Source: a plasmid
Length of the DNA stretch: 64,000 bases
Sequence record: AP029160.1
Strand: one strand, 5' to 3'
Shown: piece after piece, positions 13,701-61,552 of the stretch
How positions within the stretch are numbered: position 1 is the first letter of the stretch
How the letters are laid out: the number at the start of each line of letters is the position of its first letter
Notes under the pieces: model-generated
What the model was told of the DNA's origin: nothing
The model's input: the letters and a program-made list of their open reading frames with translations, nothing else
Database searches by the model: none
Program-made: the position numbers and the translations under genes

Positions 13701-13726
13701 TGTAATTAAAAAAAAGGATAAATAGC

Positions 13727-19030: not shown

Positions 19031-20369
19031 TAGGAATCAGCGGATTAGATTGCTCTAATCTCGTCTTACATATTCCTCGTCCAGCTTTACTTCGGCTAAT
19101 TCCTAGCCTAGTTCTCGTCTTAGCTTTCGGCTTTGACAAAAGAAATTGAACACCTCTTTTTGCTATTATTTTTGCTGCATTGATATCAGCATTGTCATGA
19201 TTTCCGCATAATAGACATAAGAAATTATCTTGTGTTTTTCTATTATCGGCGTGAGTGTGGCCACAATTGGCACATTCTTGACTAGAATAATGAGGTGAAA
19301 CTTTTATAACTAATTTCCCATATTTTTTAGCTTTATATTCTAAAAATTCTATTGTTTTTGCTAATCCTTTAGAGAGTAATTCTCTATTTAACCCCGCCTT
19401 GGCCTTTCTCATATTTGGCAAATAATTTCCATTTTCATCTTGCTTTGGCTTAGGAGATTTTGTCATATTTTTTAGTTTTAAATCTTCTACTGCAAATATT
19501 TTTGCCTCAGAATTTGCAATAGAATGTGAGACTTTATGACAAAAATCATGTCTTATATTACTTATTTTAGAATGAATTTTGGCAATTCTATTTTTTGTTT
19601 TATTTCTACTTGTAGATCCTTTTTTCTGACGTGCTAATTTTCTTTGGTATTTTTTTAACTTTTTTTGCTTAAGTTTAATTTGATTTTTTAACTTATCATC
19701 GAAATCATAACAAGATTGATTGCTAGTTTGAAATGGAATTACGATACCTCGATCAATTCCAACGGTTAGAGTATTTAGTGATGTTTCATCTAAATTGGAA
19801 TACTCATCCAATAATTCTTGCTCTGATTTTCCTGTATCTTCTACTTCATAACAGAAAGATACATACCATTTTTTATTTTTCTTACCAATTACAATTTGTT
19901 GAGGATTTCCAAATTCTCTATGCGCTTTAAATTTTAAAACACCCAAACTATTTTTCTTAGTACCAATTATAAGATTTTTTAAAACAACTCCATCATCGCT
20001 TATTTCATCTTTAAATTTAAATAATTCACTTGTAAGCAATACAGTATCTTTTATTCCTTTTTTCTTTTTGCGTGGATTATTAGCTATTCCTTTAAAGAAA
20101 CGTTGTTTTGCTGTATACCAAATAGAAGATGCATTACGCAAAACTTGAGAAGGACATTGATTTAACCACTCTCTTTCATCATTTTTAAAATGAGAATAGG
20201 CTTGATTAATAGATATTTTATCGCCAGTACTTTTAAAAATGTTATAATTTTGATTATCTTCTGACACTTTGCAATTATAAATTACTCTAGCACAACCTAT
20301 CCATTGAGAAAGTATGTGAACTTGCTCAGCGGTTGGATATGCTCTAAATTTTACACCACAATTTGCCAT
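19005..20369 (-). CDS. tnpB: TnpB (OrfB) RNA-guided nuclease of IS200/IS605
   Basis: 454 aa. RuvC-like core and C-terminal zinc finger CANCGHTHADNRKTQDNFLCLLCG. Confidence 0.85.
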   Translation of the reverse strand: MANCGVKFRAYPTAEQVHILSQWIGCARVIYNCKVSEDNQNYNIFKSTGDKISINQAYSHFKNDEREWLNQCPSQVLRNASSIWYTAKQRFFKGIANNPRKKKKGIKDTVLLTSELFKFKDEISDDGVVLKNLIIGTKKNSLGVLKFKAHREFGNPQQIVIGKKNKKWYVSFCYEVEDTGKSEQELLDEYSNLDETSLNTLTVGIDRGIVIPFQTSNQSCYDFDDKLKNQIKLKQKKLKKYQRKLARQKKGSTSRNKTKNRIAKIHSKISNIRHDFCHKVSHSIANSEAKIFAVEDLKLKNMTKSPKPKQDENGNYLPNMRKAKAGLNRELLSKGLAKTIEFLEYKAKKYGKLVIKVSPHYSSQECANCGHTHADNRKTQDNFLCLLCGNHDNADINAAKIIAKRGVQFLLSKPKAKTRTRLGISRSKAGRGICKTRLEQSNPLIPMTSEARSL

Positions 20370-20416
20370 AAGTTCTCCTTAATGCTAATCTAGCATTCGT
20401 TTATTTTGGAGTCAAT

Positions 20417-20893
20417 ATGGATCATAAAAATTACGAGTGGAGAACAGGAAGAAGCCAAATATATAAGCATTATTATCATTTAGTATTTGTTACAAAATAC
20501 AGACGTAATGTTTTCACAAATGAAATACTTGAAAGAGTTAAAGTCATTTTTAAAGAAACATGTGAGCAAATTGATTGTGAGCTAATTGAATTTAATGGTG
20601 AAGATGATCATATACATATTCTTATCAGCATTCCTCCAAAACACTCTGTTGCAGTTGTTGTTAGTAAATTAAAAGGAAAATCATCATACTTTATTAGAAA
20701 AGAATTCTGGGATCATATTAAGAAAAAACTATGGGGAGAGCACTTCTGGAGCCCTAGTTATTGCTCTGTTACTTGTGGAGGAGCTCCTCTAGACGTCATA
20801 AAAAAATACATTGATGACCAAAGAAAGCCATCTTCTGAAAAAGGGGTCGCTCAATCAATTCGTGAAAGAAAAGTACGTTTGCGAGCGGACTAA
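20417..20893 (+). CDS. tnpA: IS200-type Y1 HUH transposase TnpA
   Basis: 158 aa. YHLVFVTKYRR, HIHILISIPPKHSV (HxH), and a catalytic Tyr region. Confidence 0.85.
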   Translation: MDHKNYEWRTGRSQIYKHYYHLVFVTKYRRNVFTNEILERVKVIFKETCEQIDCELIEFNGEDDHIHILISIPPKHSVAVVVSKLKGKSSYFIRKEFWDHIKKKLWGEHFWSPSYCSVTCGGAPLDVIKKYIDDQRKPSSEKGVAQSIRERKVRLRAD

Positions 20894-24036: not shown

Positions 24037-24087
24037 ATTTTCATTGAAATTCTTGGTATATATTTCAAAAAGTATCTGATAGGTATC

Positions 24088-24260
24088 TGTTACGGCTCAC
24101 GAACATCGGAGGGTCTGGATCGCAATCAAAGACAAATTGGGCTCAAATTAAATGCGAATACAAAACTCTTCAAACTCACTTTAAATGCGAATGAGCTCAT
24201 TCGCAAAGCACTCGGGATCGCAATCATCAACTTTGACTCACTTTAAATGCGAATGAAAAA
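24088..24260. repeat. Left inverted end with repeated TTAAATGCGAATG and GGATCGCAATC boxes
   Basis: Aligns with the reverse complement of 28380..28553. Confidence 0.6.
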
Positions 24261-24279
24261 TTGCTTTAAAAGCAAATTA

Positions 24280-25263
24280 TTATCTTGTTGCTCCAATTGT
24301 AATACCAAGATGCGTTAGCTCTTCATCAATTTCATGAGCTCTTCCAGCTGGTAATCTTCCTTTTTGATAATCTTTTATTTCTGAAACAGATACTCCAATA
24401 CTTTCTGATAGTCGACCTATTGGATAACCTTGTCGTGTTAATCGTGATTCTAAAGAATCAAAGTTTTTTCCAATTACATCACAAACCGTATTTTCTGAAA
24501 TAGGTTTTTCAGCAGTTAAATATCCTTCTGATAAAACCCTCCATGTGTAACATTCCATTTCTAAAGGTGTTTTAAGCTTTGAAATAAGAGCTTTTCTAGC
24601 TCCAGCAGTGAAGATATCTGAGATTTTAACATTTGGTTCAAGACAAGAAGAAAGCATCCAATCAAAAAACTTTTCCTCACATCCATCAATTCCCTTCATA
24701 ATAACATGCTGGGTTCGCATTCCTATTTCTTGCATAGATGCTCTGTGGAGTTCAAATTTTAATCTAGGATGCCCTACAAGGACAATGGCAAGCCTTCCTC
24801 CAGCTTTGGAAATAAGTTCCATTAATCTTTTGAGTTCTATAAGTGTCTGCATTGGAAGATCATGTTCTTCGTCTATAAATATTGCTACGGGCACGTTACG
24901 TCTTGTAATCAACTTTTGTATTTGCCTCATTCTGAGCTCAGTACGCTTATGAAGAGTAATAGTGTCTTCATCTGCCAGATCTGCAACCATGGCATCGATT
25001 AAGGTATTTAAATTAACTTTATTTTTATCAATTGAAAGACTAGATACAACAAGGATGTTCCCCTCTTTCTCTAAATCGATCATTATTCTGTGTAGTGAGC
25101 TTGTTTTTCCCACCCCAATCGGACCTGTTAAAGCAATGAGATCTCCTGATGGCATATATTTTTTAAGATCTTCAAACATTGGACCATAGCTTTCATCCAC
25201 AAAATATCCTGCATTTTTAAGTTCTTTTGTTAAGCCGTAGTATTGCATCATTTCAATTATCAT
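24280..25263 (-). CDS. TniB/MuB-like AAA+ transposition ATPase
   Basis: 327 aa. Walker A GPIGVGKTSSL, Walker B IFIDEEHDL. Confidence 0.75.
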   Translation of the reverse strand: MIIEMMQYYGLTKELKNAGYFVDESYGPMFEDLKKYMPSGDLIALTGPIGVGKTSSLHRIMIDLEKEGNILVVSSLSIDKNKVNLNTLIDAMVADLADEDTITLHKRTELRMRQIQKLITRRNVPVAIFIDEEHDLPMQTLIELKRLMELISKAGGRLAIVLVGHPRLKFELHRASMQEIGMRTQHVIMKGIDGCEEKFFDWMLSSCLEPNVKISDIFTAGARKALISKLKTPLEMECYTWRVLSEGYLTAEKPISENTVCDVIGKNFDSLESRLTRQGYPIGRLSESIGVSVSEIKDYQKGRLPAGRAHEIDEELTHLGITIGATR

Positions 25264-25273
25264 TTTTACATCC

Positions 25274-26470
25274 TTATGAACTTTCTTGCCTAAGATTTAG
25301 TTCCTGTTGAATCCATTCGAGGATTTTGTCTTTTTCTAAGGTCTTTGACAAGAAGCTATGAAGATCATTTAATTTTTCTAGAGATAGTTTTCCTAGTGGT
25401 ATACCTATAGTGTGAGCAATGAACTTTCTTGCGGCATATTCTGAAGGGAATCGAATTTCGTTAAATGGGTCAGGATCAACAAAAGGACGCATACGGATGG
25501 TTTCTGAAGGTAAACTTTTATTTTCATTGTTTGCAGGAAGATGAATTGTATCCATAGTTTCTCTTGGTATAGATAGTTCGTTCGCTATTTTTTCTATTTT
25601 ATCAATTCTTCTTTCAGCTTCTGTTTTTTTATAAGATCTGTATTTATTTAATTGCAACGGGTAGCCTGTTTGCTGGAAAGGGCCGTATTTTGCTCCTTCA
25701 AATTCTATAAAAATGTCCGTTTCTAATAAACCATTCCAAACAATTACTGTTTTTCCCATTAACTCATGATCAACGGAATAAATAATACCATCAAGAGAAA
25801 TAGTACAATCAGAATTCACTGTTCTTTCAACTGGTTCTCTAACAAGAGAAGAAAAGCGCTCCCATGAGCACATTTGTCGAATTCCTTCTTCAGGGATATT
25901 TTTAATCCAATCCTCAATTCGAGAGCATTCTTGGCTACGATGAGGCATCTGTGAATAGCGAATTAAAAACGGGAAAAGCCATTTATTAGCTTCTTTTTCA
26001 TCTTTTGGTTTATGGAAATGGTATAAAGTTTCATGAAGCTCTTTGACAGTACGAAATGGTCTTTCAACTTTTCCCTTTGATCTTGCGGTAATTCTTCTAC
26101 CATCCGAATTTCTAGGCATATGGCATCTCAATTCGATTCCTAAATTTTGCATCGCTCGTTGAAAAATCGCACTTTTTGCGATGGGTCCATTATCCATATA
26201 AATAACCTTTGGGATGCCTTGAAAAGGAAAATTCTCATTCTCTTTTTTTGACATAGCATTAAATAAAAACATTAATGCTGCAATAACATCTTCTCCATAA
26301 ACAACATGATATTCTTGATAAGAAACTCCACTCCTGTCATCAACAACACTGTAAAGCATTAGTATTGCTTTACCATGCTTAGGATCCACCCATTCTGGCA
26401 TTATTTCTATATATTTAAGTAGTTTTCGTAGATTAATTAAGGCTTCTTGTGGAATTAGTTTCCGATTCAT
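25274..26470 (-). CDS. DDE (rve-fold) TniA/Tn552 p480-like transposase
   Basis: 398 aa. VIYMDNGPIA...KGKVERPFRTVKE places the catalytic D and E in an integrase core. Confidence 0.7.
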   Translation of the reverse strand: MNRKLIPQEALINLRKLLKYIEIMPEWVDPKHGKAILMLYSVVDDRSGVSYQEYHVVYGEDVIAALMFLFNAMSKKENENFPFQGIPKVIYMDNGPIAKSAIFQRAMQNLGIELRCHMPRNSDGRRITARSKGKVERPFRTVKELHETLYHFHKPKDEKEANKWLFPFLIRYSQMPHRSQECSRIEDWIKNIPEEGIRQMCSWERFSSLVREPVERTVNSDCTISLDGIIYSVDHELMGKTVIVWNGLLETDIFIEFEGAKYGPFQQTGYPLQLNKYRSYKKTEAERRIDKIEKIANELSIPRETMDTIHLPANNENKSLPSETIRMRPFVDPDPFNEIRFPSEYAARKFIAHTIGIPLGKLSLEKLNDLHSFLSKTLEKDKILEWIQQELNLRQESS

Positions 26471-27147
26471 GAAAACCCCACTAAATTTTTATTTAAAGCT
26501 TTAAAAGAAGAATAATTTTTCATTATATCATAATAAGTGCTTCTGGATATCCGAAATTTCTTGCAAAGATCGCTAACTGTTCTTTCCCCTTTACAGGACT
26601 CAACTATCAAAGAGCTAATATCTAGTTCTCCCAATGCTTTAGGACGCCCCCTTCCTTTCATTTTTCCTTGTGCTTTTGCAATTGCAACACCTTCTCTTAC
26701 CCTTTCGCAAATGATATCTCTTTCTAACTGAGCAAATACAGCCATGATTCCTACCATTGCTTGGCTAAAATGATCGTCTTTTGTGGAATCAATGGCTGGT
26801 TCAGAGAGCGATTTATAAGCTATTTTTCTTTGTGAAAGATCTTCTAGAGTCTTCATAATCCCAGAAAGCGTTCTTCCTAATCTATCAAGCCGATAGACAA
26901 AAAGAGTATCTCCTTTTTGTAACTTTGCTAAAAGGGACTTAAGTTGGGGCCTTTCCATGCTTTTTCCCGTAGCGACTTCTGATATGATTTCTTGGGCCCC
27001 AGCTGCTTTTAAGGCTTTAATTTGTAAAGATAAATTTTGATCTGAAGTTGAAATCCGAGCATAACCATAAATTCCCATTTTGGCCTCATTTTTTGGACAG
27101 GGTTTTTCGGACATAAAAAATCTAGTAAATTCAATACATGAAAACAA
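26467..27147 (-). CDS. Serine recombinase (resolvase/BinL-like)
   Basis: MGIYGYARISTSDQNLSLQ...DRLGR...C-terminal HTH. The likely true start is the M at ~27078. Confidence 0.8.
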   Translation of the reverse strand: MFSCIEFTRFFMSEKPCPKNEAKMGIYGYARISTSDQNLSLQIKALKAAGAQEIISEVATGKSMERPQLKSLLAKLQKGDTLFVYRLDRLGRTLSGIMKTLEDLSQRKIAYKSLSEPAIDSTKDDHFSQAMVGIMAVFAQLERDIICERVREGVAIAKAQGKMKGRGRPKALGELDISSLIVESCKGERTVSDLCKKFRISRSTYYDIMKNYSSFKALNKNLVGFS

Positions 27148-27264
27148 GTACTCTTGGTTGTAGTCAAAGATACCTCATATTTTTTGAAATTGTTTCGAAT
27201 ATTTCTAATATTGCATTTATTTCGTTTATGTGGTAGAATATGCTGTGAGTTAAGAAAGGATATT

Positions 27265-27741
27265 ATGAAAATAAGCACTCTAACATTGATAGAAGAATAT
27301 ACACCAACAGTTGAGGATACTAAAAAAGCTGAAATTGTAATTAAAGATATTTCTAATTTCAGTGAAAAGAAAAAGATTAAAAATCTTGAGCTTGCGTTAA
27401 ACTTCCAAGGTAATATAAAGAATTTACAACTTCCATTAAGTATTATGCCATTTTTAATGGATATATTAAATGAAGTTGCTCATGGAAATTCAGTTACTAT
27501 TGTGCCATTTAATAAGGAATTTACAACGCAAGAAGCAGCGGATATTTTAAACGTATCACGCCCATTTATTATTAAAATTCTTGAGTCAGGACAAATACCA
27601 TTTCATAAAGTTGGTGCACACAGAAGAATCAAAGCAAAAGATATTATGGCATTCAAGAAAAAAATGAATAAAAAAAGTAAAGATGCACTTGAAAAATTGG
27701 CAAAAATTTCTCAAGAAGATAAACTTGGTTATGAAGACTAA
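27265..27741 (+). CDS. HTH DNA-binding protein (MerR/excisionase-type), putative antitoxin
   Basis: FTTQEAADILNVSRPFIIKILESGQIPFHKVGAHRRI. Immediately upstream of the PIN gene with a 2-nt gap. Confidence 0.55.
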   Translation: MKISTLTLIEEYTPTVEDTKKAEIVIKDISNFSEKKKIKNLELALNFQGNIKNLQLPLSIMPFLMDILNEVAHGNSVTIVPFNKEFTTQEAADILNVSRPFIIKILESGQIPFHKVGAHRRIKAKDIMAFKKKMNKKSKDALEKLAKISQEDKLGYED

Positions 27742-27743
27742 AA

Positions 27744-28322
27744 ATGAACAGTAATAATTTTGTTGTTATTTATGACGCCTGTATTTTATATCCAGCAAAT
27801 TTAAGAGATTTTTTACTCCATTTGGCTTTAACAAATCAATTTAAAGCTAAATGGAGTGATGATATACATGAAGAATGGATTAATAATTTACTAAAGAATA
27901 GACCTGATTTGAAAATAGAAAGGTTAAATAAGACAAGAGAGCTGATGGAATTGGCTGTGCCTGATGCTAATATTCCAAAATTAAGGTACCAAGAAATATT
28001 AACATCAATTTCTTTACCAGATCCTGACGATAAGCATGTATTAGCAGCAGCAATTGTATGTCAAGCTCAATATATTGTAACTTTTAATTTGAAAGATTTT
28101 CCTAAGAAAATATTAAGTAAATATGAAATTGAAGCAATTCACCCTGATGACTTTATTTGTCATTTAATAAATCTTTCTCCTGAAAATGTACTTGATTCTA
28201 TTTCTAATCAATTAAATAGCTTGAAAAACCCTCCAATAAAAATGAATGATTTGATAAAAATCCATAAAAAAAGCGGTCTTCACAAGAGTATGCAACAAAT
28301 AGAAACCATGCTTGATATTTAA
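27744..28322 (+). CDS. PIN-domain protein, putative toxin
   Basis: 192 aa. VVIYDACILYPANLRDFL with the N-terminal acidic residue of PIN; further D/E residues at the conserved spacing. Confidence 0.6.
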   Translation: MNSNNFVVIYDACILYPANLRDFLLHLALTNQFKAKWSDDIHEEWINNLLKNRPDLKIERLNKTRELMELAVPDANIPKLRYQEILTSISLPDPDDKHVLAAAIVCQAQYIVTFNLKDFPKKILSKYEIEAIHPDDFICHLINLSPENVLDSISNQLNSLKNPPIKMNDLIKIHKKSGLHKSMQQIETMLDI

Positions 28323-28379
28323 ATTTGAAATGATTTACTAAATTTTTTCTTCTGATGATATAAAAATCATTCATCAGCG

Positions 28380-28553
28380 ATTTTTCATTCGCATTTAATC
28401 TGAGCCCATGTTTATGATTGCGATCCCAAGTGCATTGCGAATGAGCCCAATCGCATTTAAAGTGAGTTTGGAGAGTTTCATATTCGCATTTAATTTGATC
28501 CCAATTTGTCTTTGATTGCGATCCAGACCCTCCGATGTTCGTGAGCCGTAACA
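28380..28553. repeat. Right inverted end of the Tn552-like element
   Basis: Three ATTCGCATTTAA boxes, two GATTGCGATCC boxes, and a terminal ...CCGTAACA. Confidence 0.6.
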
Positions 28554-29026
28554 GTTAACGGTTATTATACAAATATATTTTTACCGGATGGGAAAGGAGA
28601 GGAAATTAAATTATTAGAAGAGAAATGTAGAAAAGAGGTGAGCAAATATAATAAAAAATATTTATATGCCCAACCAATTTTTTATTACTTTGGTTTAATT
28701 CCATCTAGTTATTCATTATTTGGAACAAATATCAAGAATACTATTTCATTATCAAATGGATACTTGCCTAAAAAAATAGATTATGATTATATGAATAGTT
28801 TTATAATAGTACCAAAACGTTCTATTAAATCTCTTAATTAGAATATTTCAAAATCAAATTGGAATAAAGAAAAACTTAGGCTTTTAAGTTTAATTAACTT
28901 AAATAGAGTTTAAAATTAATTTACCACAAAAATCTGAAAAAGATGTATTAGAGGATTTAAAAATAAAGCTCAAAAATAAAAAAGAGTTAATAGAAACTGC
29001 GAATCTCATAAAGAATAGAAATTATT

Positions 29027-31645: not shown

Positions 31646-31955
31646 GCAAATTTTTTTTGAAAAAAAAGAGATTTTCAAATTAAATCGAAATTATATTTAA
31701 AATTAAACGAAATTAATTACAACAGATTTGAAATACCTTTTGTTATTAATCAGAAAGACATCAATTCTTTTCTTATCAGCAGAAAACTGTCTTAATAAAA
31801 ACTTTGGTACATAATGATGCTTACGTTCTTGAGCCATAGGAATCTCCAGTTAGTATTTCCTTGCTGAATTTTTCTTGTGATGTTATTTTATTTTTAGTTA
31901 ATGCCTCGATTTACAATCTGTGTTTTTATAAAAATGTTTTTGTAATAAATATAAA

Positions 31956-32564
31956 TTAATTCAAACAATGCCCATTTTGTAATTTTTTTATCTTTTGATT
32001 AAATTCATCGAAACTTATTTTGTAGGCAATTTCATCTTTTTGTGGCCATACTTTCATTACATATGTAATTATATTTTGGTGGCGTATAATTTGTTCTTTC
32101 CCCACTATCCAACTTTCAACATTCATTTCTTTTATTTTTGGATACATTAACCTATAGTAATCTTCCATTGCAGCTTGATTATCTGCGTTTTCAGCAAAAA
32201 TTAACAGCGCAACAATCTGATTGCATTTTAAACAAGGCAAAATTTTACTTGGAATTTTATGATAATTAGGCATTATATTTTGTTGGAAATGATGAGAATC
32301 TGTTTCTTTCATTTTTGATTGAGTTGATTTTTCAATTTCAGCAATCATTGATTTTGTTATTGGTTCAAGTATTTCTAAGCGTCTTTTTGTCGTAGGATCT
32401 TGTGGATCTCCGACTACTTCACTTGAGAAATGACACATTCCTTTTTTTTCGCTTACAACAATTCTTCCCAGATCTCCTAAATTTTCATGTCGAATGATAT
32501 AGGCAACTGAATTTTGAATGATTTCTTTTCGACAAGAAATTCCTTTTGGTAATGTGTAATTCAT
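31956..32564 (-). CDS. Hypothetical protein with four Cys (C11, C44, CxxC at 113-116); second gene of a two-gene operon
   Basis: 202 aa. 13 bp downstream of 32578..33705. Confidence 0.3.
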   Translation of the reverse strand: MNYTLPKGISCRKEIIQNSVAYIIRHENLGDLGRIVVSEKKGMCHFSSEVVGDPQDPTTKRRLEILEPITKSMIAEIEKSTQSKMKETDSHHFQQNIMPNYHKIPSKILPCLKCNQIVALLIFAENADNQAAMEDYYRLMYPKIKEMNVESWIVGKEQIIRHQNIITYVMKVWPQKDEIAYKISFDEFNQKIKKLQNGHCLN

Positions 32565-32577
32565 TTAATTATCCTTT

Positions 32578-33705
32578 TTAATCTTCATTGACTTCTTGAA
32601 TATTTGTGGGGAGATTTAACTCCCATTGTTTTCCTTTTTTTATCAGGGTTCCCTGGCATACGATTGGAACTTTTTTGTCATGAGCTACCACAAATTTAGA
32701 ATCATCATCATCAGCAGCACGAATAATTATCGAAGAAAGTTTACCGTCAATTTGAGTTTTAACTGTAACTTTACCTTCAGATTGATTTGCATCTCGTTGT
32801 AATTTTACAATCAATCCAAATATTTTTTCGTCTGGACGAGGTTCTTGATTCGTAAAACGTTTGGCAGCTTCTTCAAGAATACCGCTCCAACGTCCATAAA
32901 AATGTTGCCTGTAGATGGGTTTATTTGAGGGCCTAGAGTTGGCCCATGTGATACTTAATTCTACTTTCTCGGATAATTTAGTTAAATTAGATAGAGCTTG
33001 GCAGATATTCGCATTTACCCCATGTTCTATCCTTGATGAAAATACATCAAAATCCTGACTTGTTTCAGAAATGGTAAGTGCTTTATGTGTTGCTTCTAGA
33101 GCTTCACATAATTTTAATGTTACCTTTCTTTCAAAAGGCTCATCTTCTAAGGAAATCTCATCTCTATTCTTTGAAAATGAAGGATTTACGGGTGAAAGGA
33201 GTGTAAAAATAAAACTTCCTCTTTCCGTGTGGCCTAGTTTGAGTTTTGAAATATAGTTTGCAACTTGGTCTGGCTTCTTCCCTAAATAAGCCGCTCGCGG
33301 CTCTAAAGCAGAGCATGCAGAGGCGTTTGTAAGCTCGTAAATACTCTTTATGGCATCGACTCCTTGCGTTGCAGGAACCCCCTCTGTTGCGCTATTTTCT
33401 GTAATGCGCACTCGAATGACATCGACTTCCGATTTTTTTAATGCTGAGATAATCTCAATTTGAGAACGTTTTTCTTGTTTTTCCAATACACTGACAAGAT
33501 CTCTTATCCTAAATGCATAATCTCCAAATTCTGTTTTAAGTGGACAGAGGACTTCATATGTTTCATTATCTACTTCTTTTTCCCAGATATTTGCTTTGCC
33601 TGGTATGGATTTAGCTGGTCGCCATCCATTAGAGGAAAGATATGAAGAAATATTGTTAGGAGTGATTTGAGAAAAAGTTTCAGAATCTTTTATATCAACC
33701 TTCAT
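32578..33705 (-). CDS. Hypothetical protein, no recognisable domain; first gene of the two-gene operon
   Basis: 375 aa. Locally higher GC than the surrounding DNA. Directly abuts the truncated IS6 copy D. Confidence 0.3.
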   Translation of the reverse strand: MKVDIKDSETFSQITPNNISSYLSSNGWRPAKSIPGKANIWEKEVDNETYEVLCPLKTEFGDYAFRIRDLVSVLEKQEKRSQIEIISALKKSEVDVIRVRITENSATEGVPATQGVDAIKSIYELTNASACSALEPRAAYLGKKPDQVANYISKLKLGHTERGSFIFTLLSPVNPSFSKNRDEISLEDEPFERKVTLKLCEALEATHKALTISETSQDFDVFSSRIEHGVNANICQALSNLTKLSEKVELSITWANSRPSNKPIYRQHFYGRWSGILEEAAKRFTNQEPRPDEKIFGLIVKLQRDANQSEGKVTVKTQIDGKLSSIIIRAADDDDSKFVVAHDKKVPIVCQGTLIKKGKQWELNLPTNIQEVNED

Positions 33706-33804
33706 ATTTTCTCATCCTCATGTAGTTTTTTAAAAAGCAGATCAAGTTGTTCTTTATTAAATATATTTGGTTTTGGACCGTCTAATAGGGACACCCCATA
33801 GAGA

Positions 33805-34139
33805 TAACACCATTCACCTTTTACTTTGATGTAAGTCTCATCCATTCGCCAACTTCCACAGATACGCTTTCTAAGCTTATAAAACTTCTTAAGTAATTTT
33901 GGACTGTATTCCACACTCCAACGATGAATGGTCGTGTGATCTACAAAAATACCACGCTCTGCTAAAAGTTCTTCTACTTGCCTGTAACTTAGGGAGTAGC
34001 TTACATACCAACGTATTGCCATTATTATAATCATACGATCAGATCAGAATGCTTCCACTTGAAATCCATCGCCACTCCCTCAAACAACTCAAAAAGAAAG
34101 TTACTATACTCTCACTTCTATATTTTTTGCAACAGAACC
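33805..34139 (-). mobile_element. IS6-family insertion sequence, copy D, 3'-truncated (left ~335 bp only), variant 3
   Basis: Left inverted repeat at 34139. Homology ends after GEWCYLY; at the breakpoint the junction reads GGGGTGTCCCTATTAG, similar to the GGGACACCCCTAATAGGG motif flanking IS6 right ends in the lipoprotein units. Confidence 0.7.
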
Positions 34140-37275: not shown

Positions 37276-38095
37276 GGTTCTGTTGCAAATAATTAGAAGC
37301 CACGAAACATTGGGTTGTTACTTTTCAAGAATGTCCTCTGTAGGTGCAATTATCCAGCGAGGGAGCAAAATTGCTCCCAAATAGGCAAATGACTTTTAAA
37401 TTTGAATTGCCCTTTTCTGAGCATATGATGGAGTTCAATACCTGCTAAAGTAGCTCTCGCCGATTTCAATGAGAAGAAACCAAGCATAGGCTTTACTTTC
37501 TTTTTTATAAATCGATGGTCTTGCTCTACAAGGTTATTTAAATATTTATTTTGTCTTATTAGAACTTTATCTTCAGATTTAAGATCTTTGTTGATAGCCT
37601 TTAATGCTGCCGTATTAGAGCCACTTTTATCAATATTTACCTTTTCTGGGATTCCAGAAGAACGAAAGCATTTTTGGAAAAAACGTTTGGCACTTGTTGT
37701 ATCTCTTCGTTTTGAAAGGTAAATATCAATCGTTTGACCATGCTTATCCACGGCTCTATAGAGATAACACCATTCACCTTTTACTTTGATGTAAGTCTCA
37801 TCCATTCGCCAACTTCCACAGATACGCTTTCTAAGCTTATAAAACTTCTTAAGTAATTTTGGACTGTATTCCACAATCCAACGATGAATGGTCGTGTGAT
37901 CTACAAAAATACCACGCTCTGCTAAAAGTTCTTCTACTTGCCTATAACTTAGGGAGTAGCCTACATACCAACGGATTGCCATTATGATAATCATACGATC
38001 AGTATGCTTCCACTTGAAATCCATCGCCACTCCCCTCAAACAACTCCAAAAAAAAGTTACTCCACTCTCACTTATATATTTTTTGCAACAGAACC
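37276..38095 (-). mobile_element. IS6-family insertion sequence, copy E, variant 1
   Basis: Transposase ORF 37350..38039 (-). Confidence 0.85.
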
Positions 38096-40539: not shown

Positions 40540-40769
40540 ATATTGAGCGTTCTGTTGGGGAAGTTGTGACAACTATCGACTGCATTATTGCATCAGGGGT
40601 TCAATTTATAGCGATAAAGGAAAGCATCAAAATCAAAGATAGACAGGATTTACATACAAAAGTCATGATTACCATGTTTAGCTTATTCGCAGAAGTTGAA
40701 CGGGAGCTTAACTCTCTACGCACAAAAGAGGCTTTGGCATCCCTCAAAGCAGAGGGAATAAAGTTAGGA
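40540..40769 (+). pseudogene. Serine-recombinase internal fragment
   Basis: ...FSLFAEVERELNSLRTKEALASLKAEGIKLGG (the resolvase alpha-E region), truncated by IS6 copy F. Confidence 0.45.
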
Positions 40770-50540: not shown

Positions 50541-52462
50541 GTGCGCGAGGTGAGTAGAGAATCCCCGTTACCAGTGATTCCCCCTCCGCAGAACCCATCG
50601 TGCAGATTTCCCGCAATGGGCTCCCGATATAGAGCAGACCTCTCATTTCAGTGATGGGAGTAGTGATGTAGTTTTCCAAGAAGAGGGAAAACCAATTCGC
50701 TCAAGAAAGCTAATTAATTTCACCCAAGTCATTCCTTTTTGTGAACCTCGAAGTTTAAACCATTTGTATATAATCCGTTTACTGAAATAAATAAATCCAC
50801 TCACCCTACGATGATTGTCAGTCACTGCATGGTAGTTGATCCATCCACGAATAACTGAGATTATTCGCCCGAAAACTGCTGTTATATCTTTTGTATTACT
50901 ATTTTCTAAGAGATATTTTCTTAGCCCTTTGAGCTTAGCACTAAAACGATCTTTCCTACTAGTAAAATTAATTCGCCAATAGTTCTTCGTTGCAGCCTTA
51001 GCCCAGTAGCATGTAAATCCTAGAAAATTAAAAGATGGCAGTTTTCTTCCTTTGGTTCGTGCCCTTTGTGCAAGAACATTCCCGGCCGGAATTATTTGTG
51101 ATTTATCCAGATGAATTCTCAATCCAAATTTGCTCAAACGTTTAGGTAACACCTCGAAAAATCTTTTCGCTTCCAGCATACTCTGGAAAGTAAACACCAT
51201 ATCATCTGCATATCTCACCATTTCACATCGACCTTTTAAGTGTGTTTGTGATATTTCTTGAAACCATTTATCAATCACATGATGAAGATAAATATTTGCG
51301 AGAATTGGTGACACAATTGAACCTTGTGGGCAGCCAATTGTGTTTTCATTAACATTGCCATCTTTCATTATTGGCGCCCTTGCAAGTGTCATAATCAATT
51401 TAATGAATTTATTATCCGAAATTTTCATACGTAGAAAAGTTTCAAGATTTTCGTGAGGAATTTCGTTGAAATATTTACGTATATCCAATTCAACAATAGC
51501 TCCATGTTGATTGTAGAAAGTTTGCCTCGCCAATTCTTTAAGTGCCATGTGGCAATTTCGGTTTTCTCGAAAACCGAATGAAGTATTCAAGAATAATGGA
51601 TCGTAGATTTGAGTTAACAGTTTGCTAACAGCCATTTGGACAATTTTGTCTTTAAGACATGCTATTGCTAACGGTCTAGTGCTTCCATCTTCTTTGGGTA
51701 TTTCAGTTATTCTTGATGGTTTTGGAGCGTATTTTCCATTTCTGATTTTAGAAAGTAGATTTCTAAGGTTTGCTTGAAGATTGACTCTGTATTTCTCCTT
51801 TGTTACGCAATCAATCCCAACGGCTTTGCTTCCGTCGAGTTTGTTAAACATCTCCCACAGCATTTCAATATTTATAATGTATCCAAGATTATTGAATACG
51901 ATATCCTTATTGGAAGCTGATAACTCACCTATGCGTTTGAGTTTCGTTAACCATGTTTGTTCGCCTATGCTGTGTACGACCATTGTTTCCCTCATTCGCT
52001 CCCTATATCTGCCAGCCCTTCGCTCCATGCTCATTACGCAATTCATCACTACTACGGCCGACTCCGCCATCCATAAATTCATCCCACAAGACTTATGTTC
52101 GCAACACTTGAACTTGTAGTACCTATGAAACATAGGAAATAAATGGACTTCCCAAGTTCCGAGCATATCTCTTCCAACTCGCCAACGTCTCTAACTCCGG
52201 TGTTTGAAGCAGTTTGGATTTGTCAGAATAACCTCCCCACTTCTGTTGTCTGCAATGTCCGGTGACACCCCGACTCACACATCTACACGCTATCGGAACC
52301 AACTAACGTTCACCTTTCGGTTTTGGCTCTCTGGATTCGCTGTCTACGCTTAAACCTTGTTGTTGCCTTCAAGACTCCAAGACTCGCTACATAATGGAAC
52401 TGACTTCTCCTTTTATGACAGGACTTTCACCTGCAAGATATGCGCAGTTTTGCTTGGCGCAC
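50541..52462 (-). mobile_element. Group II intron, copy 1 (full length, ~1.9 kb)
   Basis: 5' GTGCGCC at 52462 (- strand). Domain V GAGCCCATTGCGGGAAATCTGCACGATGGGTTC at ~50570..50603 (- strand), then domain VI ending ...CGCGCAC at 50541. The intron-encoded protein lies inside. Confidence 0.75.
50643..51983 (-). CDS. Group II intron-encoded reverse transcriptase/maturase
   Basis: RT motifs including YADD. The ORF-track start at 52166 is upstream read-through of intron domains; the likely start is MVVHSIGEQ at ~51983. Confidence 0.85.
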   Translation of the reverse strand: MVVHSIGEQTWLTKLKRIGELSASNKDIVFNNLGYIINIEMLWEMFNKLDGSKAVGIDCVTKEKYRVNLQANLRNLLSKIRNGKYAPKPSRITEIPKEDGSTRPLAIACLKDKIVQMAVSKLLTQIYDPLFLNTSFGFRENRNCHMALKELARQTFYNQHGAIVELDIRKYFNEIPHENLETFLRMKISDNKFIKLIMTLARAPIMKDGNVNENTIGCPQGSIVSPILANIYLHHVIDKWFQEISQTHLKGRCEMVRYADDMVFTFQSMLEAKRFFEVLPKRLSKFGLRIHLDKSQIIPAGNVLAQRARTKGRKLPSFNFLGFTCYWAKAATKNYWRINFTSRKDRFSAKLKGLRKYLLENSNTKDITAVFGRIISVIRGWINYHAVTDNHRRVSGFIYFSKRIIYKWFKLRGSQKGMTWVKLISFLERIGFPSSWKTTSLLPSLK

Positions 52463-52749
52463 CCCGGATTCGTGTAAAAAACGCACTAGCCCAATATTAA
52501 AGCATTTCAATTTATTAATAGAAAATTTTAGTTCCCAGCTATGCTATCCCCAAATGTAACCGAATCATTCTCAGAGTCCTCAAGACAGGGATAAGACAAT
52601 TTCTCAAGAGCAAAGAATCAAAATAACCCAAGGTGTCAAAATTTCTTTTAATCCTAATATATAATATTTAAAAAAATTTTTCCATTCTAGAATAATTATA
52701 TATTTTTGTAGTTATTCCTTATCTCATCACTTATTCTAAGGAAAGTTTT

Positions 52750-54926: not shown

Positions 54927-55208
54927 TCCCAATATCCTCCTTGATTTAGTTATTATATATAACTCAGTTATAATATGCAATATTTAATTTATAAATAACT
55001 GAAATACTTATATTGAATAAAAATGTCAATTTGAAGTATACCCTATCTTTACAATTTGAAAGCCTAATTTTCTGTCAATTTAGACTCGAAATTTTAATTT
55101 ATTGACACATTTTAAATGAACTCTATAGCTCTAAGCTGACATTTTTAAGAAAGATATAATCAAAATTGTTTAAAAATATAGCTAGTGCGTTTTTTACACG
55201 AATCCGGG

Positions 55209-56631
55209 GTGCGCCAAGCAAAACTGCGCATATCTTGCAGGTGAAAGTCCTGTCATAAAAGGAGAAGTCAGTTCCATTATGTAGCGAGTCTTGGAGTCTT
55301 GAAGGCAACAACAAGGTTTAAGCGTAGACAGCGAATCCAGAGAGCCAAAACCGAAAGGTGAACGTTAGTTGGTTCCGATAGCGTGTAGATGTGTGAGTCG
55401 GGGTGTCACCGGACATTGCAGACAACAGAAGTGGGGAGGTTATTCTGACAAATCCAAACTGCTTCAAACACCGGAGTTAGAGACGTTGGCGAGTTGGAAG
55501 AGATATGCTCGGAACTTGGGAAGTCCATTTATTTCCTATGTTTCATAGGTACTACAAGTTCAAGTGTTGCGAACATAAGTCTTGTGGGATGAATTTATGG
55601 ATGGCGGAGTCGGCCGTAGTAGTGATGAATTGCGTAATGAGCATGGAGCGAAGGGCTGGCAGATATAGGGAGCGAATGAGGGAAACAATGGTCGTACACA
55701 GCATAGGCGAACAAACATGGTTAACGAAACTCAAACGCATAGGTGAGTTATCAGCTTCCAATAAGGATATCGTATTCAATAATCTTGGATACATTATAAA
55801 TATTGAAATGCTGTGGGAGATGTTTAACAAACTCGACGGAAGCAAAGCCGTTGGGATTGATTGCGTAACAAAGGAGAAATACAGAGTCAATCTTCAAGCA
55901 AACCTTAGAAATCTACTTTCTAAAATCAGAAATGGAAAATACGCTCCAAAACCATCAAGAATAACTGAAATACCCAAAGAAGATGGAAGCACTAGACCGT
56001 TAGCAATAGCATGTCTTAAAGACAAAATTGTCCAAATGGCTGTTAGCAAACTGTTAACTCAAATCTACGATCCATTATTCTTGAATACTTCATTCGGTTT
56101 TCGAGAAAACCGAAATTGCCACATGGCACTTAAAGAATTGGCGAGGCAAACTTTCTACAATCAACATGGAGCTATTGTTGAATTGGATATACGTAAATAT
56201 TTCAACGAAATTCCTCACGAAAATCTTGAAACTTTTCTACGTATGAAAATTTCGGATAATAAATTCATTAAATTGATTATGACACTTGCAAGGGCGCCAA
56301 TAATGAAAGATGGCAATGTTAATGAAAACACAATTGGCTGCCCACAAGGTTCAATTGTGTCACCAATTCTCGCAAATATTTATCTTCATCATGTGATTGA
56401 TAAATGGTTTCAAGAAATATCACAAACACACTTAAAAGGTCGATGTGAAATGGTGAGATATGCAGATGATATGGTGTTTACTTTCCAGAGTATGCTGGAA
56501 GCGAAAAGATTTTTCGAGGTGTTACCTAAACGTTTGAGCAAATTTGGATTGAGAATTCATCTGGATAAATCACAAATAATTCCGGCCGGGAATGTTCTTG
56601 CACAAAGGGCACGAACCAAAGGAAGAAAACT
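55209..56631 (+). mobile_element. Group II intron, copy 2 (5' 1.4 kb only; 3' end removed by IS6 copy J)
   Basis: Identical to copy 1 over the shared length. Shares a 28-nt 5' exon (GCTAGTGCGTTTTTTACACGAATCCGGG) with copy 1. The RT ORF 55505..56659 runs out of the intron into the IS6 inverted repeat. Confidence 0.75.
55688..56631 (+). pseudogene. Intron-encoded RT/maturase, 3'-truncated
   Basis: Identical to 50643..51983 up to ...AQRARTKGRKL, then IS6. Confidence 0.75.
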
Positions 56632-57451
56632 GGTTCTGTTGCAAAAAATATATAAGTGAGAGTAGAGTAACTTTTTTTTGGAGTTGTTTGAGGGGAGTGG
56701 CGATGGATTTCAAGTGGAAGCATACCGATCGTATGATTATCATAATGGCAATCCGTTGGTATGTAAGCTACTCCCTAAGTTACAGGCAAGTAGAAGAACT
56801 CCTAGCAGAGCGTGGTATTTTTGTAGATCACACGACAATTCATCGTTGGATTGTGGAATACGTTCCAAAATTACTTAAGAAGTTTTATAAGCTTAGAAAG
56901 CGTATCTGTGGAAGTTGGCGAATGGATGAGACTTACATCAAAGTAAAAGGTGAATGGTGTTATCTCTATAGAGCCGTGGATAAGCATGGTCAAACGATTG
57001 ATATTTACCTTTCAAAACGAAGAGATACAACAAGTGCCAAACGTTTTTTCCAAAAATGCTTTCGTTCTTCTGGAATCCCAGAAAAGGTAAATATTGATAA
57101 AAGTGGCTCTAATACGGCAGCATTAAAGGCTATCAACAAAGATCTTAAATCTGAAGATAAAGTTCTAATAAGACAAAATAAATATTTAAATAACCTTGTA
57201 GAGCAAGACCATCGATTTATAAAAAAGAAAGTAAAGCCTATGCTTGGTTTCTTCTCATTGAAATCGGCGAGAGCTACTTTAGCAGGTATTGAACTCCATC
57301 ATATGCTCAGAAAAGGGCAATTCAAATTTAAAAGTCATTTGCCTATTTGGGAGCAATTTTGCTCCCTCGCTGGATAATTGCACCTACAGAGGACATTCTT
57401 GAAAAGTAACAACCCAATGTTTCGTGGCTTCTAATTATTTGCAACAGAACC
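56632..57451 (+). mobile_element. IS6-family insertion sequence, copy J, variant 3
   Basis: Transposase ends at 57377. Confidence 0.85.
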
Positions 57452-57548
57452 GAACTGCATGCTATTGGCATCATCAAAGGATTTCAGTGGATTGATGGAA
57501 GTTTTTTAGAAAATATCGAAATGCTGGAAGGTAGACCACCCAATGATA

Positions 57549-58368
57549 GGTTCTGTTGCAAAAAATATATAAGTGAGAGTGGAGTAACTTTTTTTTGGAG
57601 TTGTTTGAGGGGAGTGGCGATGGATTTCAAGTGGAAGCATACTGATCGTATGATTATCATAATGGCAATCCGTTGGTATGTAGGCTACTCCCTAAGTTAT
57701 AGGCAAGTAGAAGAACTTTTAGCAGAGCGTGGTATTTTTGTAGATCACACGACCATTCATCGTTGGATTGTGGAATACAGTCCAAAATTACTTAAGAAGT
57801 TTTATAAGCTTAGAAAGCGTATTTGTGGAAGTTGGCGAATGGATGAGACTTACATCAAAGTAAAAGGTGAATGGTGTTATCTCTATAGAGCCGTGGATAA
57901 GCATGGTCAAACGATTGATATTTATCTATCAAAACGAAGAGATACAACGAATGCCAAACGTTTTTTCCAAAAATGCTTTCGTACTTCTGGAATCCCAGAA
58001 AAGGTAAATATTGATAAAAGTGGCTCTAATACGGCAGCATTAAAGGCTATCAACAAAGATCTTAAATCTGAAGATAAGATCTTAATAAGACAAAATAAAT
58101 ATTTAAATAACCTTGTGGAACAAGACCATCGATTTATAAAAAAGAAAGTGAAGCCTATGCTTGGTTTCTTCTCATTGAAATCGGCGAGAGCTACTTTAGC
58201 AGGTATTGAACTCCATCATATGCTCAGAAAAGGGCAATTCAAATTTAAAAGTCATTTGCCTATTTGGGAGCAATTTTGCTCCCTCGCTGGATAATTGCAC
58301 CTACAGAGGACATTCTTGAAAAGTAACAACCCAATGTTTCGTGGCTTCTAATTATTTGCAACAGAACC
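57549..58368 (+). mobile_element. IS6-family insertion sequence, copy K, variant 2
   Basis: Transposase ends at 58294. A 97-bp unrelated fragment (…ELHAIGIIKGFQWIDGSFLENIEMLEGRPPND) sits between J and K. Confidence 0.85.
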
Positions 58369-59570
58369 CTCCTAATTTCGGACCATCTATTACAGCACAA
58401 TATCCCTTAGAAATATTTATGATAGATCATACAAAAGTGGATGTTATTATTGTGGATGAACAGCAGAGGCTTCCCATTGGCAGACCTTGGCTTACATTAG
58501 CTATTGATGTTTTTAGTCGATGTATTGCCGGTTTTTATTTGAGTTTTGAAAGTCCTTCTGCAGTTTCAGTGGGATTATGTTTAACTCACTCTGTATTTGA
58601 TAAAACAGATTATTTAAATAAATTTAATATTCAACATAGCTGGCCTTTAAAAGGTAAGCCAGAAAAAATCATTGTGGATCAGGGTTCTGAATTTAAAAGT
58701 GAGGCTTTACTTAAGGGGTGTGAGCAACATGGAATATCAATTCAATGGAGAAGAATAGGAGCTCCTCATTTAAATGGAGTAATTGAAAGAGTAATTGGAA
58801 ATTTTATGAAAGAAATTCATGAAATTCCTGGAACAACATTTTCAAATATTACCGAAAGAGGGAACTACGATTCGATTAAAATGGCGGTTTTAACCATGCC
58901 TGAATTAGAAAAATGGCTTACCCATGCGATCGTTGGAAAATATCATCTCGAAATTCATTCCTCATTAATGGAGCCTCCACTAGCTTTGTTTCGGCAAGGA
59001 TTAGAAACAAGAAGCAAAGAAATAAATTTAGTAAAAAATCAAAAAGCATTTTTAATAGATTTTTTACCAATTGAGAAAAGAACTTTACAACGTCATGGTT
59101 TTGTAATTGAGCATATATTTTATTTCTCTAATGCTTTAATTCCCTGGATATCTTCAGGGCACGAAAATGAAAAATTTATTATACGCAGAGATCCAAGAAA
59201 TTTAAGTAGAATTTTTGTTCTTCATCCAAAAGAAACTCAGTATTTAGAAGTACCTTATCGAGATTTATCAAGACCCGTCATTACTTTATGGGAACATCGA
59301 GAAACATTAAAAAGATTAAAGGAACGCGGGCTCAGACATTTTGATGAAGCACTCATTTTTAAAACTCTTTTAGAAATGAAAAATATTGTTAAGAATGCTA
59401 AAAAAGAAACTCAATTAGAACGAAAAAAGAGAGTAAAAAATGAAAACGCAAAAAGAAATACACAAGAAATAGATAATTATAAAAAGTACAATGATAATAA
59501 GCTTAATCACATAGAAGAATTTGATATAAACTCCATTAAACCTTTTGAAGATATTGAGGATTGGTCATGA
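58369..59570 (+). pseudogene. tniA: TniA (Tn5053/Tn402-type DDE transposase), C-terminal ~400 aa; its N-terminal part is at 60803..61327 (-)
   Basis: Begins CTCCTAAT|ttcgga right after IS6 copy K. MIDHTKVDVIIVDE...IVDQGSEFKS...NGVIERVIGNFMKE are the DDE integrase-core signatures. Confidence 0.7.
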
Positions 59571-59982
59571 TAGATGTTAATTTTAATCCTTCTTTTTCAC
59601 TAGAACATCTCATTCCTCAAATTAGAAAAACAGCTTTGTTACCTAATGAAGAACGCATTGCTCATATTCTCGCTGATAGATGGATCGGATATTCAAAAGC
59701 ACAAGAAGCAATATCTAAACTTCAAAAATTAATAGATCATCCTAAACGACAAAGAATGCCAAACCTTCTCATTGTTGGTCCGACAAACAATGGAAAATCC
59801 ATGATTATTGAAAAATTTAAACGTATGCATAAATCCATTTCTAAAGAAAATGTACCAAAAGAAATAATGCCAATTGTTTCTTTACAGATGCCAAGTGATC
59901 CAACAATTGCAAGATTTTATGCAATGCTTCTCTATAATTTAGGCGCGCCAGTTACCATGAAATGTAAAGTAGCAGATTTAGA
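59561..59982 (+). pseudogene. tniB: TniB AAA+ ATPase, N-terminal 140 aa, truncated by IS6 copy L
   Basis: ERIAHILADRWIGYSKAQEAISKLQ...RMPNLLIVGPTNNGKSMIIEKFKRMH (Walker A). Confidence 0.7.
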
Positions 59983-60802
59983 GGTTCTGTTGCAAATAAT
60001 TAGAAGCCACGAAACATTGGGTTGTTACTTTTCAAGAATGTCCTCTGTAGGTGCAATTATCCAGCGAGGGAGCAAAATTGCTCCCAAATAGGCAAATGAC
60101 TTTTAAATTTGAATTGCCCTTTTCTGAGCATATGATGGAGTTCAATACCTGCTAAAGTAGCTCTCGCCGATTTCAATGAGAAGAAACCAAGCATAGGCTT
60201 CACTTTCTTTTTTATAAATCGATGGTCTTGTTCCACAAGGTTATTTAAATATTTATTTTGTCTTATTAAGATCTTATCTTCAGATTTAAGATCTTTGTTG
60301 ATAGCCTTTAATGCTGCCGTATTAGAGCCACTTTTATCAATATTTACCTTTTCTGGGATTCCAGAAGTACGAAAGCATTTTTGGAAAAAACGTTTGGCAT
60401 TCGTTGTATCTCTTCGTTTTGATAGATAAATATCAATCGTTTGACCATGCTTATCCACGGCTCTATAGAGATAACACCATTCACCTTTTACTTTGATGTA
60501 AGTCTCATCCATTCGCCAACTTCCACAAATACGCTTTCTAAGCTTATAAAACTTCTTAAGTAATTTTGGACTGTATTCCACAATCCAACGATGAATGGTC
60601 GTGTGATCTACAAAAATACCACGCTCTGCTAAAAGTTCTTCTACTTGCCTATAACTTAGGGAGTAGCCTACATACCAACGGATTGCCATTATGATAATCA
60701 TACGATCAGTATGCTTCCACTTGAAATCCATCGCCACTCCCCTCAAACAACTCCAAAAAAAAGTTACTCCACTCTCACTTATATATTTTTTGCAACAGAA
60801 CC
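59983..60802 (-). mobile_element. IS6-family insertion sequence, copy L, variant 2
   Basis: Transposase 60057..60746 (-). Confidence 0.85.
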
Positions 60803-61327
60803 ATTAGGAGTAAAACTATGAGCTGCTAGTTTTCCAGATCTTTTTTCTACTACTTCTAAAGATGAGAGTTGGGCAATTCTTCTACGAACTGTATTTTGTC
60901 CAGGAGGAGTTATATTTGCTTCCACACATCTTCTACGTACTTCTTGGATAATTTTTGAAATCTTTCTTTTTTGCTTATCTAAATAAAGCTCTCTTACTAC
61001 CTGATGAATTATTGTTTCTACATTTTCGTTTAATCTTGCTTTTCCTACACCTCCATTGGGTGGTTGTGGTGCCAATGAAGTTAATAATCCGCCAGAAGCT
61101 TTAAAACGTTCCAATAATCTTGATAAAGTGCGTTTCGATATGCCAAGATCTTTTGCTGCGGATTGTCTTTTTTTATCTGTTAATTTTGATATATTTAATA
61201 ACGGTTGAATTACTTTAGCTCTTCTTTGAGCTTCAGCCCAAGCCGAATCAGACAGTCTTACGGGACCAATTTCCAAAGAGGATGTCTTTAAATCGGTCTT
61301 TTCTTTTGTAAGATCCTGTTTTTCCAT
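60803..61327 (-). pseudogene. tniA: TniA N-terminal 175 aa (HTH region)
   Basis: LSDSAWAEAQRRAKVIQPLL...ISKRTLSRLLERFKASGG. Ends ...AAHSFTPN with the nucleotides CTCCTAAT adjoining the IS6 left end. The same 8 bp begin the fragment at 58369. Confidence 0.7.
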
Positions 61328-61490
61328 ATTTATAATCCTGTGCCAGGGAGTATGGAAATTTTAGCATATTAGGACAGGATCTATGGAAAAAACTTTTGAC
61401 ATCCTCTTTGGATAACTTATTGATTTTATTTCTGCCTATATGACATCTTCTTTGGAAAATGACATGCGCTTAAAAAAATACCCAAAGAAG

Positions 61491-61549
61491 GTGCGCGAGG
61501 TGAGTAGAGAATCCCCGTTACCAGTGATTCCCCCTCCGCAGAACCTTTT
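61491..61549 (-). mobile_element. Relic of a third group II intron copy: last 57 nt (domain VI) in minus orientation
   Basis: Identical to 50541..50597. Preceded by a degenerate Tn3 tnpA C-terminus-like sequence (…LENDMRLKKYPKK|G). Confidence 0.5.
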
Positions 61550-61552
61550 AAT

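Follow-up and report, generated by a model that had tools for sequence, protein, structure and literature searches.

A Tn402/Tn5053-like tniA gene split by inverted IS6-family copies in plasmid sequence AP029160.1

Results

The split tniA locus

The stretch of DNA analysed here (the window) comprises 64,000 nucleotides of a plasmid, sequence record AP029160.1, and contains two pieces of a tniA gene from a Tn402/Tn5053-like transposon, associated with two copies of an insertion sequence (IS) of the IS6 family. Coordinates refer to the window, whose first letter is position 1; IS copies are lettered in window order, and their left and right inverted repeats are designated IRL and IRR. The features of the locus are listed in Table 1, followed by those of the rest of the window. 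The IS copies K and L are opposite in orientation and bracket 58369-59982, which comprises the 3' part of tniA and a truncated tniB (tniB'), in the layout K(+)-CTCCTAAT-(tniA 3' part, tniB')-L(-)-ATTAGGAG-(tniA 5' part). The module formed by K, this segment and L measures 3.25 kb. K and L are identical at 820 of 820 positions, against 22 differences between the adjacent copies J and K.

Table 1. Coordinates of the features identified at the tniA locus and elsewhere in the window.
Feature	Coordinates	Strand	Remarks
97-bp gene-fragment remnant	57452..57548	+	between IS J and IS K; weak DUF6932 match (translation vs PF22014, E 2e-4, below curated cut-off)
IS6 copy K	57549..58368	+	820 bp; identical to L, B, G and M
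Target octamer CTCCTAAT	58369..58376	+	inside inverted segment, adjoining K IRR
tniA 3' piece	58369..59570	+	codons 174-572 and stop; whole DDE core and Mu-transposase C domain
tniB'	59567..59982	+	codons 1-138 of 307; 4-nt overlap with tniA stop
IS6 copy L	59983..60802	-	IRR against tniB', IRL against tniA 5' piece
Second octamer	60803..60810	-	outside inverted segment, at L IRL; ATTAGGAG on + strand, CTCCTAAT on gene strand
tniA 5' piece	60803..61327	-	codons 1-175; helix-turn-helix (HTH) DNA-binding region
Left end of Tn402/Tn5053-like transposon	61328..61464	-	upstream of tniA; terminal repeat TGTCATTTTCCAAAG..., then subterminal TGTCA-containing repeats
IS A	10236-11055		left flank 9944-10235 (+)
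IS E	37276-38095		rejoining flank is the sequence below 37275 (-)
Truncated or degenerate IS6 copy	33798-34139	-	BLAST
Truncated or degenerate IS6 copy	43437-44164	+	BLAST
Truncated or degenerate IS6 copy	46967-47163		BLAST
DarT and macro-domain (DarG-like) pair	592-2271		
Tn3-family transposase and its resolvase	6120-9851		transposase in two open reading frames (likely frameshift)
IS200/IS605 TnpA and TnpB	19005-20893		TnpB with Cas12f-like TNB domain
AAA_22 ATPase, Mu-type transposase, serine resolvase, HTH protein and PIN protein	24084-28557		between inverted repeats

An earlier note on this DNA, made from the letters alone, had placed two IS6-family copies at the tniA pieces, with an N-terminal part of 175 residues against the left end of L, a C-terminal part starting right after the right end of K, an 8-bp target duplication common to both halves, a tniB truncated by L, and halves facing each other across about 1.2 kb. 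This anatomy was confirmed throughout. The minus-strand piece is exactly 175 codons long and its last residues are AAHSFTPN, as the note gave them; the plus-strand piece starts at codon 174; tniB is interrupted after codon 138 of 307 by the IRR of L; and the two pieces of tniA converge over 1232 bp occupied by tniB' and L. The octamer CTCCTAAT occurs four times in the window, both strands taken together. The chance expectation for an identical 8-mer is 7e-5 per pair of flanks and 0.006 across all 81 IRL x IRR flank pairs, so the match at K and L is not attributable to chance.

The IS6-family element

The IS is 820 bp long with perfect terminal repeats of 14 bp (14/14), GGTTCTGTTGCAAA at both ends; the termini of copy K read GGTTCTGTTGCAAA...TTTGCAACAGAACC. 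The ends of IS26 are GGCACTGTTGCAAA. A single open reading frame (ORF) encodes a DDE-type transposase of 224 aa counted from its ATG, which matches NCBIfam NF033587 transpos_IS6 (E 4e-76, 255 bits for a cut-off of 125) and Pfam PF13610, DDE_Tnp_IS240 (E 6e-45). Elements of the family are about 700-890 bp long, with one DDE transposase ORF of about 213-254 aa and short near-perfect inverted repeats that have GG tips and cTGTt and caaa motifs (PMC7986276, from which the family ranges were taken). The length, the ORF and the GGTTCTGTTGCAAA ends of the present element all agree with this description. The 8-bp target duplication of the family was identified in two pairs, CTCCTAAT at K and L and ACTCTGCA at copies A and E, both inverted, and dropping one octamer of either pair restores a continuous ORF. 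This footprint suggests that the element transposes replicatively and forms cointegrates.

BLAST identified 10 full copies in the window, starting at 10236, 12082, 15859, 37276, 40770, 42616, 56632, 57549, 59983 and 63182, the final one short by 1 base at the window end. They belong to three variants (A=E=F, B=G=K=L=M and C=J), with 9-22 differences between variants over the 820 positions. Direct 8-bp duplications are lacking at all 9 complete, scorable copies, which indicates that the element does not usually end up as a resolved simple insertion in this DNA. Three further copies are partial or degenerate: one starts 1 bp past the end of the full copy G and spans IS positions 91-818, another keeps just the first 340 bp or so, and the third has 79% identity over about 200 bp. 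They testify to earlier rounds of IS6 activity.

The transposase is an exact match to the entries BFD33604.1 and BFD33607.1 of Pigmentibacter ruber GTC16762. An exact 31-mer of the IS end was absent from a collection of contigs with one genome per species, and a TniA protein-seeded scan of the same collection gave no confirmed relative; as both were empty, this IS variant is not represented there. A metagenome scan for the IS end was likewise empty, and an exact search of contigs for the 224-aa transposase returned no record.

The rejoined tniA and the truncated tniB

As the earlier note had proposed, the two tniA pieces were rejoined in silico, searched for domains and compared with the proteins of Tn402. 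Joined with one octamer dropped, they form an ORF of 1722 nt without a stop; with both octamers retained the frame is shifted into stops. The encoded protein has 572 aa, so that the intact Tn5053-type TniA announced by the note was recovered at slightly less than the 580 aa or so expected. It contains HTH_23/HTH_29, rve and Mu-transpos_C in the Pfam search, the last (PF09299) with 42 bits for a cut-off of 21.7 and rve with 26 bits, under its cut-off of 32.6. Residues 19-571 are collinear with a Tn402-type TniA (44% identity over 556 aa, E 8e-164) and the alignment passes straight across the junction region; the comparison proteins were those of a Tn402-type class 1 integron transposon on an Escherichia coli IncX1 plasmid. 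The rejoined protein has the features of the TniA family, being an rve DDE core, a Mu-transposase C-terminal domain and homology to Tn402. Many matches to TniA proteins of plasmids span residues 19-428 only.

The 138-aa TniB' matches PF05621 (TniB) with E 6e-34, is 52% identical to the TniB of the same E. coli element and is identical to the first 138 aa of TniB in L001, one of the loci compared below. An exact look-up of the ORF reading through from TniB' into the IS gave no record.

Three proteins encoded in the window, the IS transposase and the two tniA fragments, are exact matches to entries of P. ruber GTC16762, in whose public record the split gene is unrecognised. BFD33605.1 is the C-terminal fragment, 383 aa from an internal start, and BFD33608.1 is the N-terminal fragment, 182 aa running into the IS (60779-61327); both are annotated as hypothetical proteins and are the halves of one dead TniA. 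The relevance of this is mainly one of annotation and bookkeeping.

Uninterrupted relatives of the transposon

Contigs or loci carrying related transposons were used for comparison and are designated L001, L004, L005, L006, L008 and L013. L008 is a metagenome contig of 83 kb, L005 a plasmid locus of Fluviispira sanaruensis and L013 a contig of 1860 bp (ENA contig ERZ27275342 k141_161970). Uninterrupted TniA copies with 99.6-100% identity were identified on metagenome contigs. A database protein of 572 aa, 99.6% identical to the rejoined TniA with two substitutions near the C-terminus, is encoded on metagenome contigs where tniA (572 aa) is accompanied by a tniB of 307 aa and a tniQ of 402 aa; the complete operon occurs in copies with 99-100% identity. 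At the nucleotide level the 3' piece of tniA is 99.4-100% and the 5' piece 99.8-100% identical to the intact loci. When the segment is reversed and one IS and one octamer are dropped, the restored tniA-tniB' is collinear with L001, L006, L008 and L013 at 99.3-100% identity. The pieces of the window map to 1929-2593 and 2586-4199 of L001, overlapping by exactly 8 bp; to 8123-8788 and 8781-10394 of L008 (99.85% and 99.94%), again with an overlap of 8 bp; and to adjacent positions with the same overlap in L006.

In these uninterrupted references CTCCTAAT is present as a single copy. L013 matches the window at 100% identity to the left and right of its single CTCCTAAT and continues beyond the break of tniB in the window, and thereby shows both empty sites. 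Positions 1-205 of L013 present a different IS6 IRR junction of its own, which lies within an otherwise uninterrupted tniA, 114 bp upstream of CTCCTAAT (equivalent to window 60916); the tniA of this transposon has therefore been struck by an IS more than once, independently. A megablast search of 57549-61467 against the PLSDB plasmids gave no match.

The homology between the window and L001, L004, L005, L006 and L008 begins at TGTCATTTTCC, with the terminus at window 61464, and the flank beyond this terminus differs among all of them. The same terminus, inverted, closes the element in L004, L005 and L008. In L008 the element occupies 8127-15995 and is bordered by a 5-bp duplication, ACGGA; L004 has the 5-bp duplication AAAAT and L005 shows none. 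These three relatives contain tniABQ, cargo genes and a serine resolvase of 188 aa beside the far end. In the window, the tniA-tniB-tniQ set is reduced to the split tniA and codons 1-138 of tniB; blastn and tblastn searches of the window detected neither the remainder of tniB nor tniQ nor the cognate tniR. Two serine resolvases of the window are only 34-39% identical to the TniR of the relatives and belong to other elements. The window holds the left terminus only, the right end being absent from it.

The relatives have the architecture of Tn402/Tn5053 (tniA-tniB-tniQ-tniR), known as res-site hunters. The window copy is a remnant and not a complete member: all it retains is the left terminus together with the split tniA and 45% of tniB. 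The likeness lies in TniA (44%) and TniB' (52%), and in the tniABQ order, the serine resolvase at the far end, the terminal repeats starting with TGTC and the 5-bp duplications of the relatives. However, the cargo of the relatives consists of chemoreceptor/OmpA-type or efflux genes, with no mer or integron, and the copy in the window is dead, with the DNA-binding N-terminal part of TniA separated from the DDE core and TniB truncated. The tni truncations of class 1 integrons (In2-type) are comparable in that IS-driven decay leaves a tniA/tniB stump; those are deletions, whereas here the stump is split and inverted and both halves are kept.

Origin of the arrangement

The K/L arrangement is probably the product of one intramolecular replicative transposition in trans, to judge from the sequence and from analogy with IS26; replication in one step is suggested by the documented behaviour of IS26-type elements. 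The transposon (left inverted repeat, tniA, tniB, tniQ, cargo, tniR, right inverted repeat) would first have lost everything past codon 138 of tniB. A donor 820-bp IS6 would have occupied this site, bordered by tniB' at its IRR and by the 97-bp gene remnant at its IRL, and its two 3' ends would have attacked CTCCTAAT, which is found at codons 173-175 of tniA, at a distance of 1.6 kb in the same DNA molecule. Copying of the IS by replication would have generated two identical inverted copies, K and L, with the segment of tniB' and the 3' part of tniA inverted in the same step. The octamer would have been left once inside the segment, at K IRR, and once outside, at L IRL, the two being reverse-complementary to each other, and each daughter IS would have kept one old flank and gained one target flank.

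What an attack in trans predicts, namely an inverted pair of IS copies, an inverted segment and the octamer inside and outside at opposite IS ends, was observed in full. The new junctions would be K-IRR and L-IRL and the old ones K-IRL, at the 97-bp remnant, and L-IRR, at tniB'. The truncation of tniB is then accounted for by the earlier junction of the donor and no separate explanation is required. The 97-bp remnant and the tniB' flank share no 8 bp, and the donor itself would consequently have been without a direct duplication.

The footprint was evaluated as defined by He et al. 2015 (PMC4471558), who regard such a pattern as diagnostic of one-step intramolecular transposition in trans and who argue, in a comparable case, against a route in which a second IS26 inserts and an inversion follows. 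The segment is flanked by the opposite-orientation copies K(+) and L(-), the identical octamers are inverted with CTCCTAAT inside and ATTAGGAG outside, and reversal minus one IS and one octamer restores the known contiguous tniA-tniB'. The trans pathway is described as general for the IS6 family by Varani et al. 2021 (PMC7986276). The full identity of K and L despite three variants in the window is necessary for both to be replicas of one donor, not sufficient; together with the identity of A and E among the same three variants and the lack of direct 8-bp duplications at the nine scorable copies, it leans towards the one-step route.

The earlier note had proposed a single insertion followed by an inversion. 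The inversion stands; the route is possible and less economical than a one-step transposition in trans. Spelled out, it consists of an insertion into tniA via cointegrate and resolution, giving direct copies of CTCCTAAT, and then a RecA-dependent inversion of 1.6 kb with an opposite IS6 at tniB'. The end state is the same as the one observed, inverted repeats of 820 bp at a distance of 1.6 kb are well suited to homologous inversion, and resolved insertions of IS6 elements, bordered by 8-bp direct repeats, are known (PMC7986276); the separate IS6 junction of L013, 114 bp upstream, is in keeping with a tniA that is struck repeatedly. We nevertheless consider this succession unlikely. Three or four events would be required where one is enough (cointegrate formation, resolution, an opposite IS already present at tniB and a homologous inversion), along with a fortuitous opposite orientation; the succession is at odds with the lack of direct duplications among the scorable copies of the window and with the identity of K and L among three variants; and the literature favours the one-step reading of such a pattern (PMC4471558).

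Several points weigh against one-step transposition in trans. Homologous recombination between K and L interconverts the observed state with an apparent simple insertion with direct duplication, so that the structure alone is no proof of the route. The precursor, with the junction of the IS and tniB' and an intact tniA, was not found in the metagenome and contig scans. The argument from variants is modest, since two random pairs would both be of the same variant in about 1 case in 7 by our estimate from the variant frequencies. The transposition activity ascribed to this IS is a prediction from its footprint, and the orientation of the K/L segment is that given by the assembly.

An assembly artefact or a heterogeneous population, with the K-L segment in the wrong orientation or in one of two coexisting ones, is much less probable still. 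A repeat of 820 bp with at least 10 full copies in the window is hard for assemblers, and the likely source genome was assembled by Unicycler from Oxford Nanopore (ONT) and short reads. The ONT reads, however, have a mean of 8.3 kb and an N50 of 13 kb and should span the 3.25-kb module, an artefact would not generate an 8-bp duplication, and in either orientation tniA is left interrupted with the same two junctions, so that the split is real.

The origin of the pieces from two tniA paralogues, separately truncated and with a coincidental octamer, might be suggested by the remnants of other Mu-type transposases at 13056-13700 and 25274-26470, and is refuted for practical purposes by the comparisons with L001, L008 and L013: the two pieces are 99.4-100% identical to one and the same uninterrupted reference, on which they overlap by exactly 8 bp, a second copy of this tniA, tniB or tniQ is absent from the window, and the chance expectation of the octamer is the 0.006 given above.

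The case resembles the trans inversions of IS26 in clinical plasmids (PMC4471558) in its opposite IS copies, in the inverted 8-bp pair inside and outside the segment, in the split gene that rejoins perfectly and in the other IS copies of the replicon without direct duplications. It differs in the host, Pigmentibacter ruber (Silvanigrellaceae) as against Enterobacterales, in the family member, with its GGTTCTGTTGCAAA ends, in the lack of resistance genes and in that the mechanism is here deduced from its products. The mechanism is already well documented for IS6/IS26, and what is new is the host, the family member and the unnamed Tn402/Tn5053-like target. A known footprint is thereby extended to an emerging human pathogen of the Silvanigrellaceae, and no new mechanistic question is raised.

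Other rearrangements in the window

The earlier note had counted two events of this kind in the window, and the second was also identified. The octamer ACTCTGCA is common to the IRL flank of A and the IRR flank of E; these two IS copies are identical, point in opposite directions and are separated by about 26 kb. When 9944-10235 is fused to the reverse-complemented sequence below 37275 and one octamer is dropped, an uninterrupted ORF of 159 aa with a GNAT domain match (E 3e-12) results. Apparently this IS6 element, with its three variants, has reshuffled the region by the IS26-type replicative pathway, and synteny in the genome of P. ruber GTC16762 is to be used with caution, being scrambled by the IS.

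Pieces that are contiguous with each other in L008 have become dispersed in the window, to 12902-14514, 58369-59982, 60803-61468 and 31953-33777. The first and the last correspond to 1-1617 and 17060-18884 of L008, where all lie within 20 kb, in and around the intact transposon, as against a spread of 48 kb in the window. One of the L008-related pieces is an IS21-like element cut exactly at the IRR of IS B. This scattering fits repeated IS6-driven rearrangement, and L008 may approximate the unscrambled ancestor.

A module formed by an IS6 copy, a segment of 1026 bp and a second IS6 copy is duplicated at 10223-12908 and 40757-43442 with 99.8% identity. The segment encodes a protein of 255 aa with a weak match to the StcE beta-sandwich. 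The segment is present a third time, in inverted orientation, beside IS M and without a second IS (62155-64000). The IRR junction of the segment, CTAGGGAC, is joined to different IS variants, and every copy of the segment holds a remnant of a degenerate IS6 end.

A split group II intron around the module

The window is dense in mobile elements, among them group II introns. One intron copy is intact (50534-52490, minus strand) and another is split into 55181-56631 and 61547-62039, both on the plus strand and in order. The interrupting block, 56632-61546, measures 4.9 kb and contains the entire K/L module. Compared with the intact copy, the split intron has lost 4-6 bp at the break, instead of having 8 bp duplicated. 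The left boundary of the block is a true IS6 end (GGTTCTGTTGCAA). Its right junction, in the region 61484-61546, is without an IS and is formed by the 3'-terminal 56 nt of a third intron copy in inverted orientation; this inverted stretch begins at the domain V heptamer GGTTCTG, which is the heptamer of the IS6 tip, within the domain V sequence GGTTCTGCGG. The termini of the block are thus GGTTCTG and CAGAACC, yet it is not a normal IS6 product.

An 8-bp duplication, a deletion in cis and an inversion in trans were considered for the split intron, and none of them fits a loss of 4-6 bp together with a junction without IS. Recombination at the GGTTCTG microhomology or at a pseudo-end can only be guessed at. 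In a highly speculative reading, to which we assign very little weight, the look-alike of the intron would serve as a surrogate end for the IS6 transposase or for recombination directed by the IS6 end sequence; if true, this would couple two unrelated mobile elements. A more modest possibility is that K and L make up an invertible module that flips actively in culture.

Other mobile elements

The remaining elements of the window are those of the last rows of Table 1. The inverted repeats that enclose the last of these measure 182 bp (24084-24265 and 28376-28557) and are 91% identical to each other, with similar ones on L005, and the whole is probably another compact transposon.

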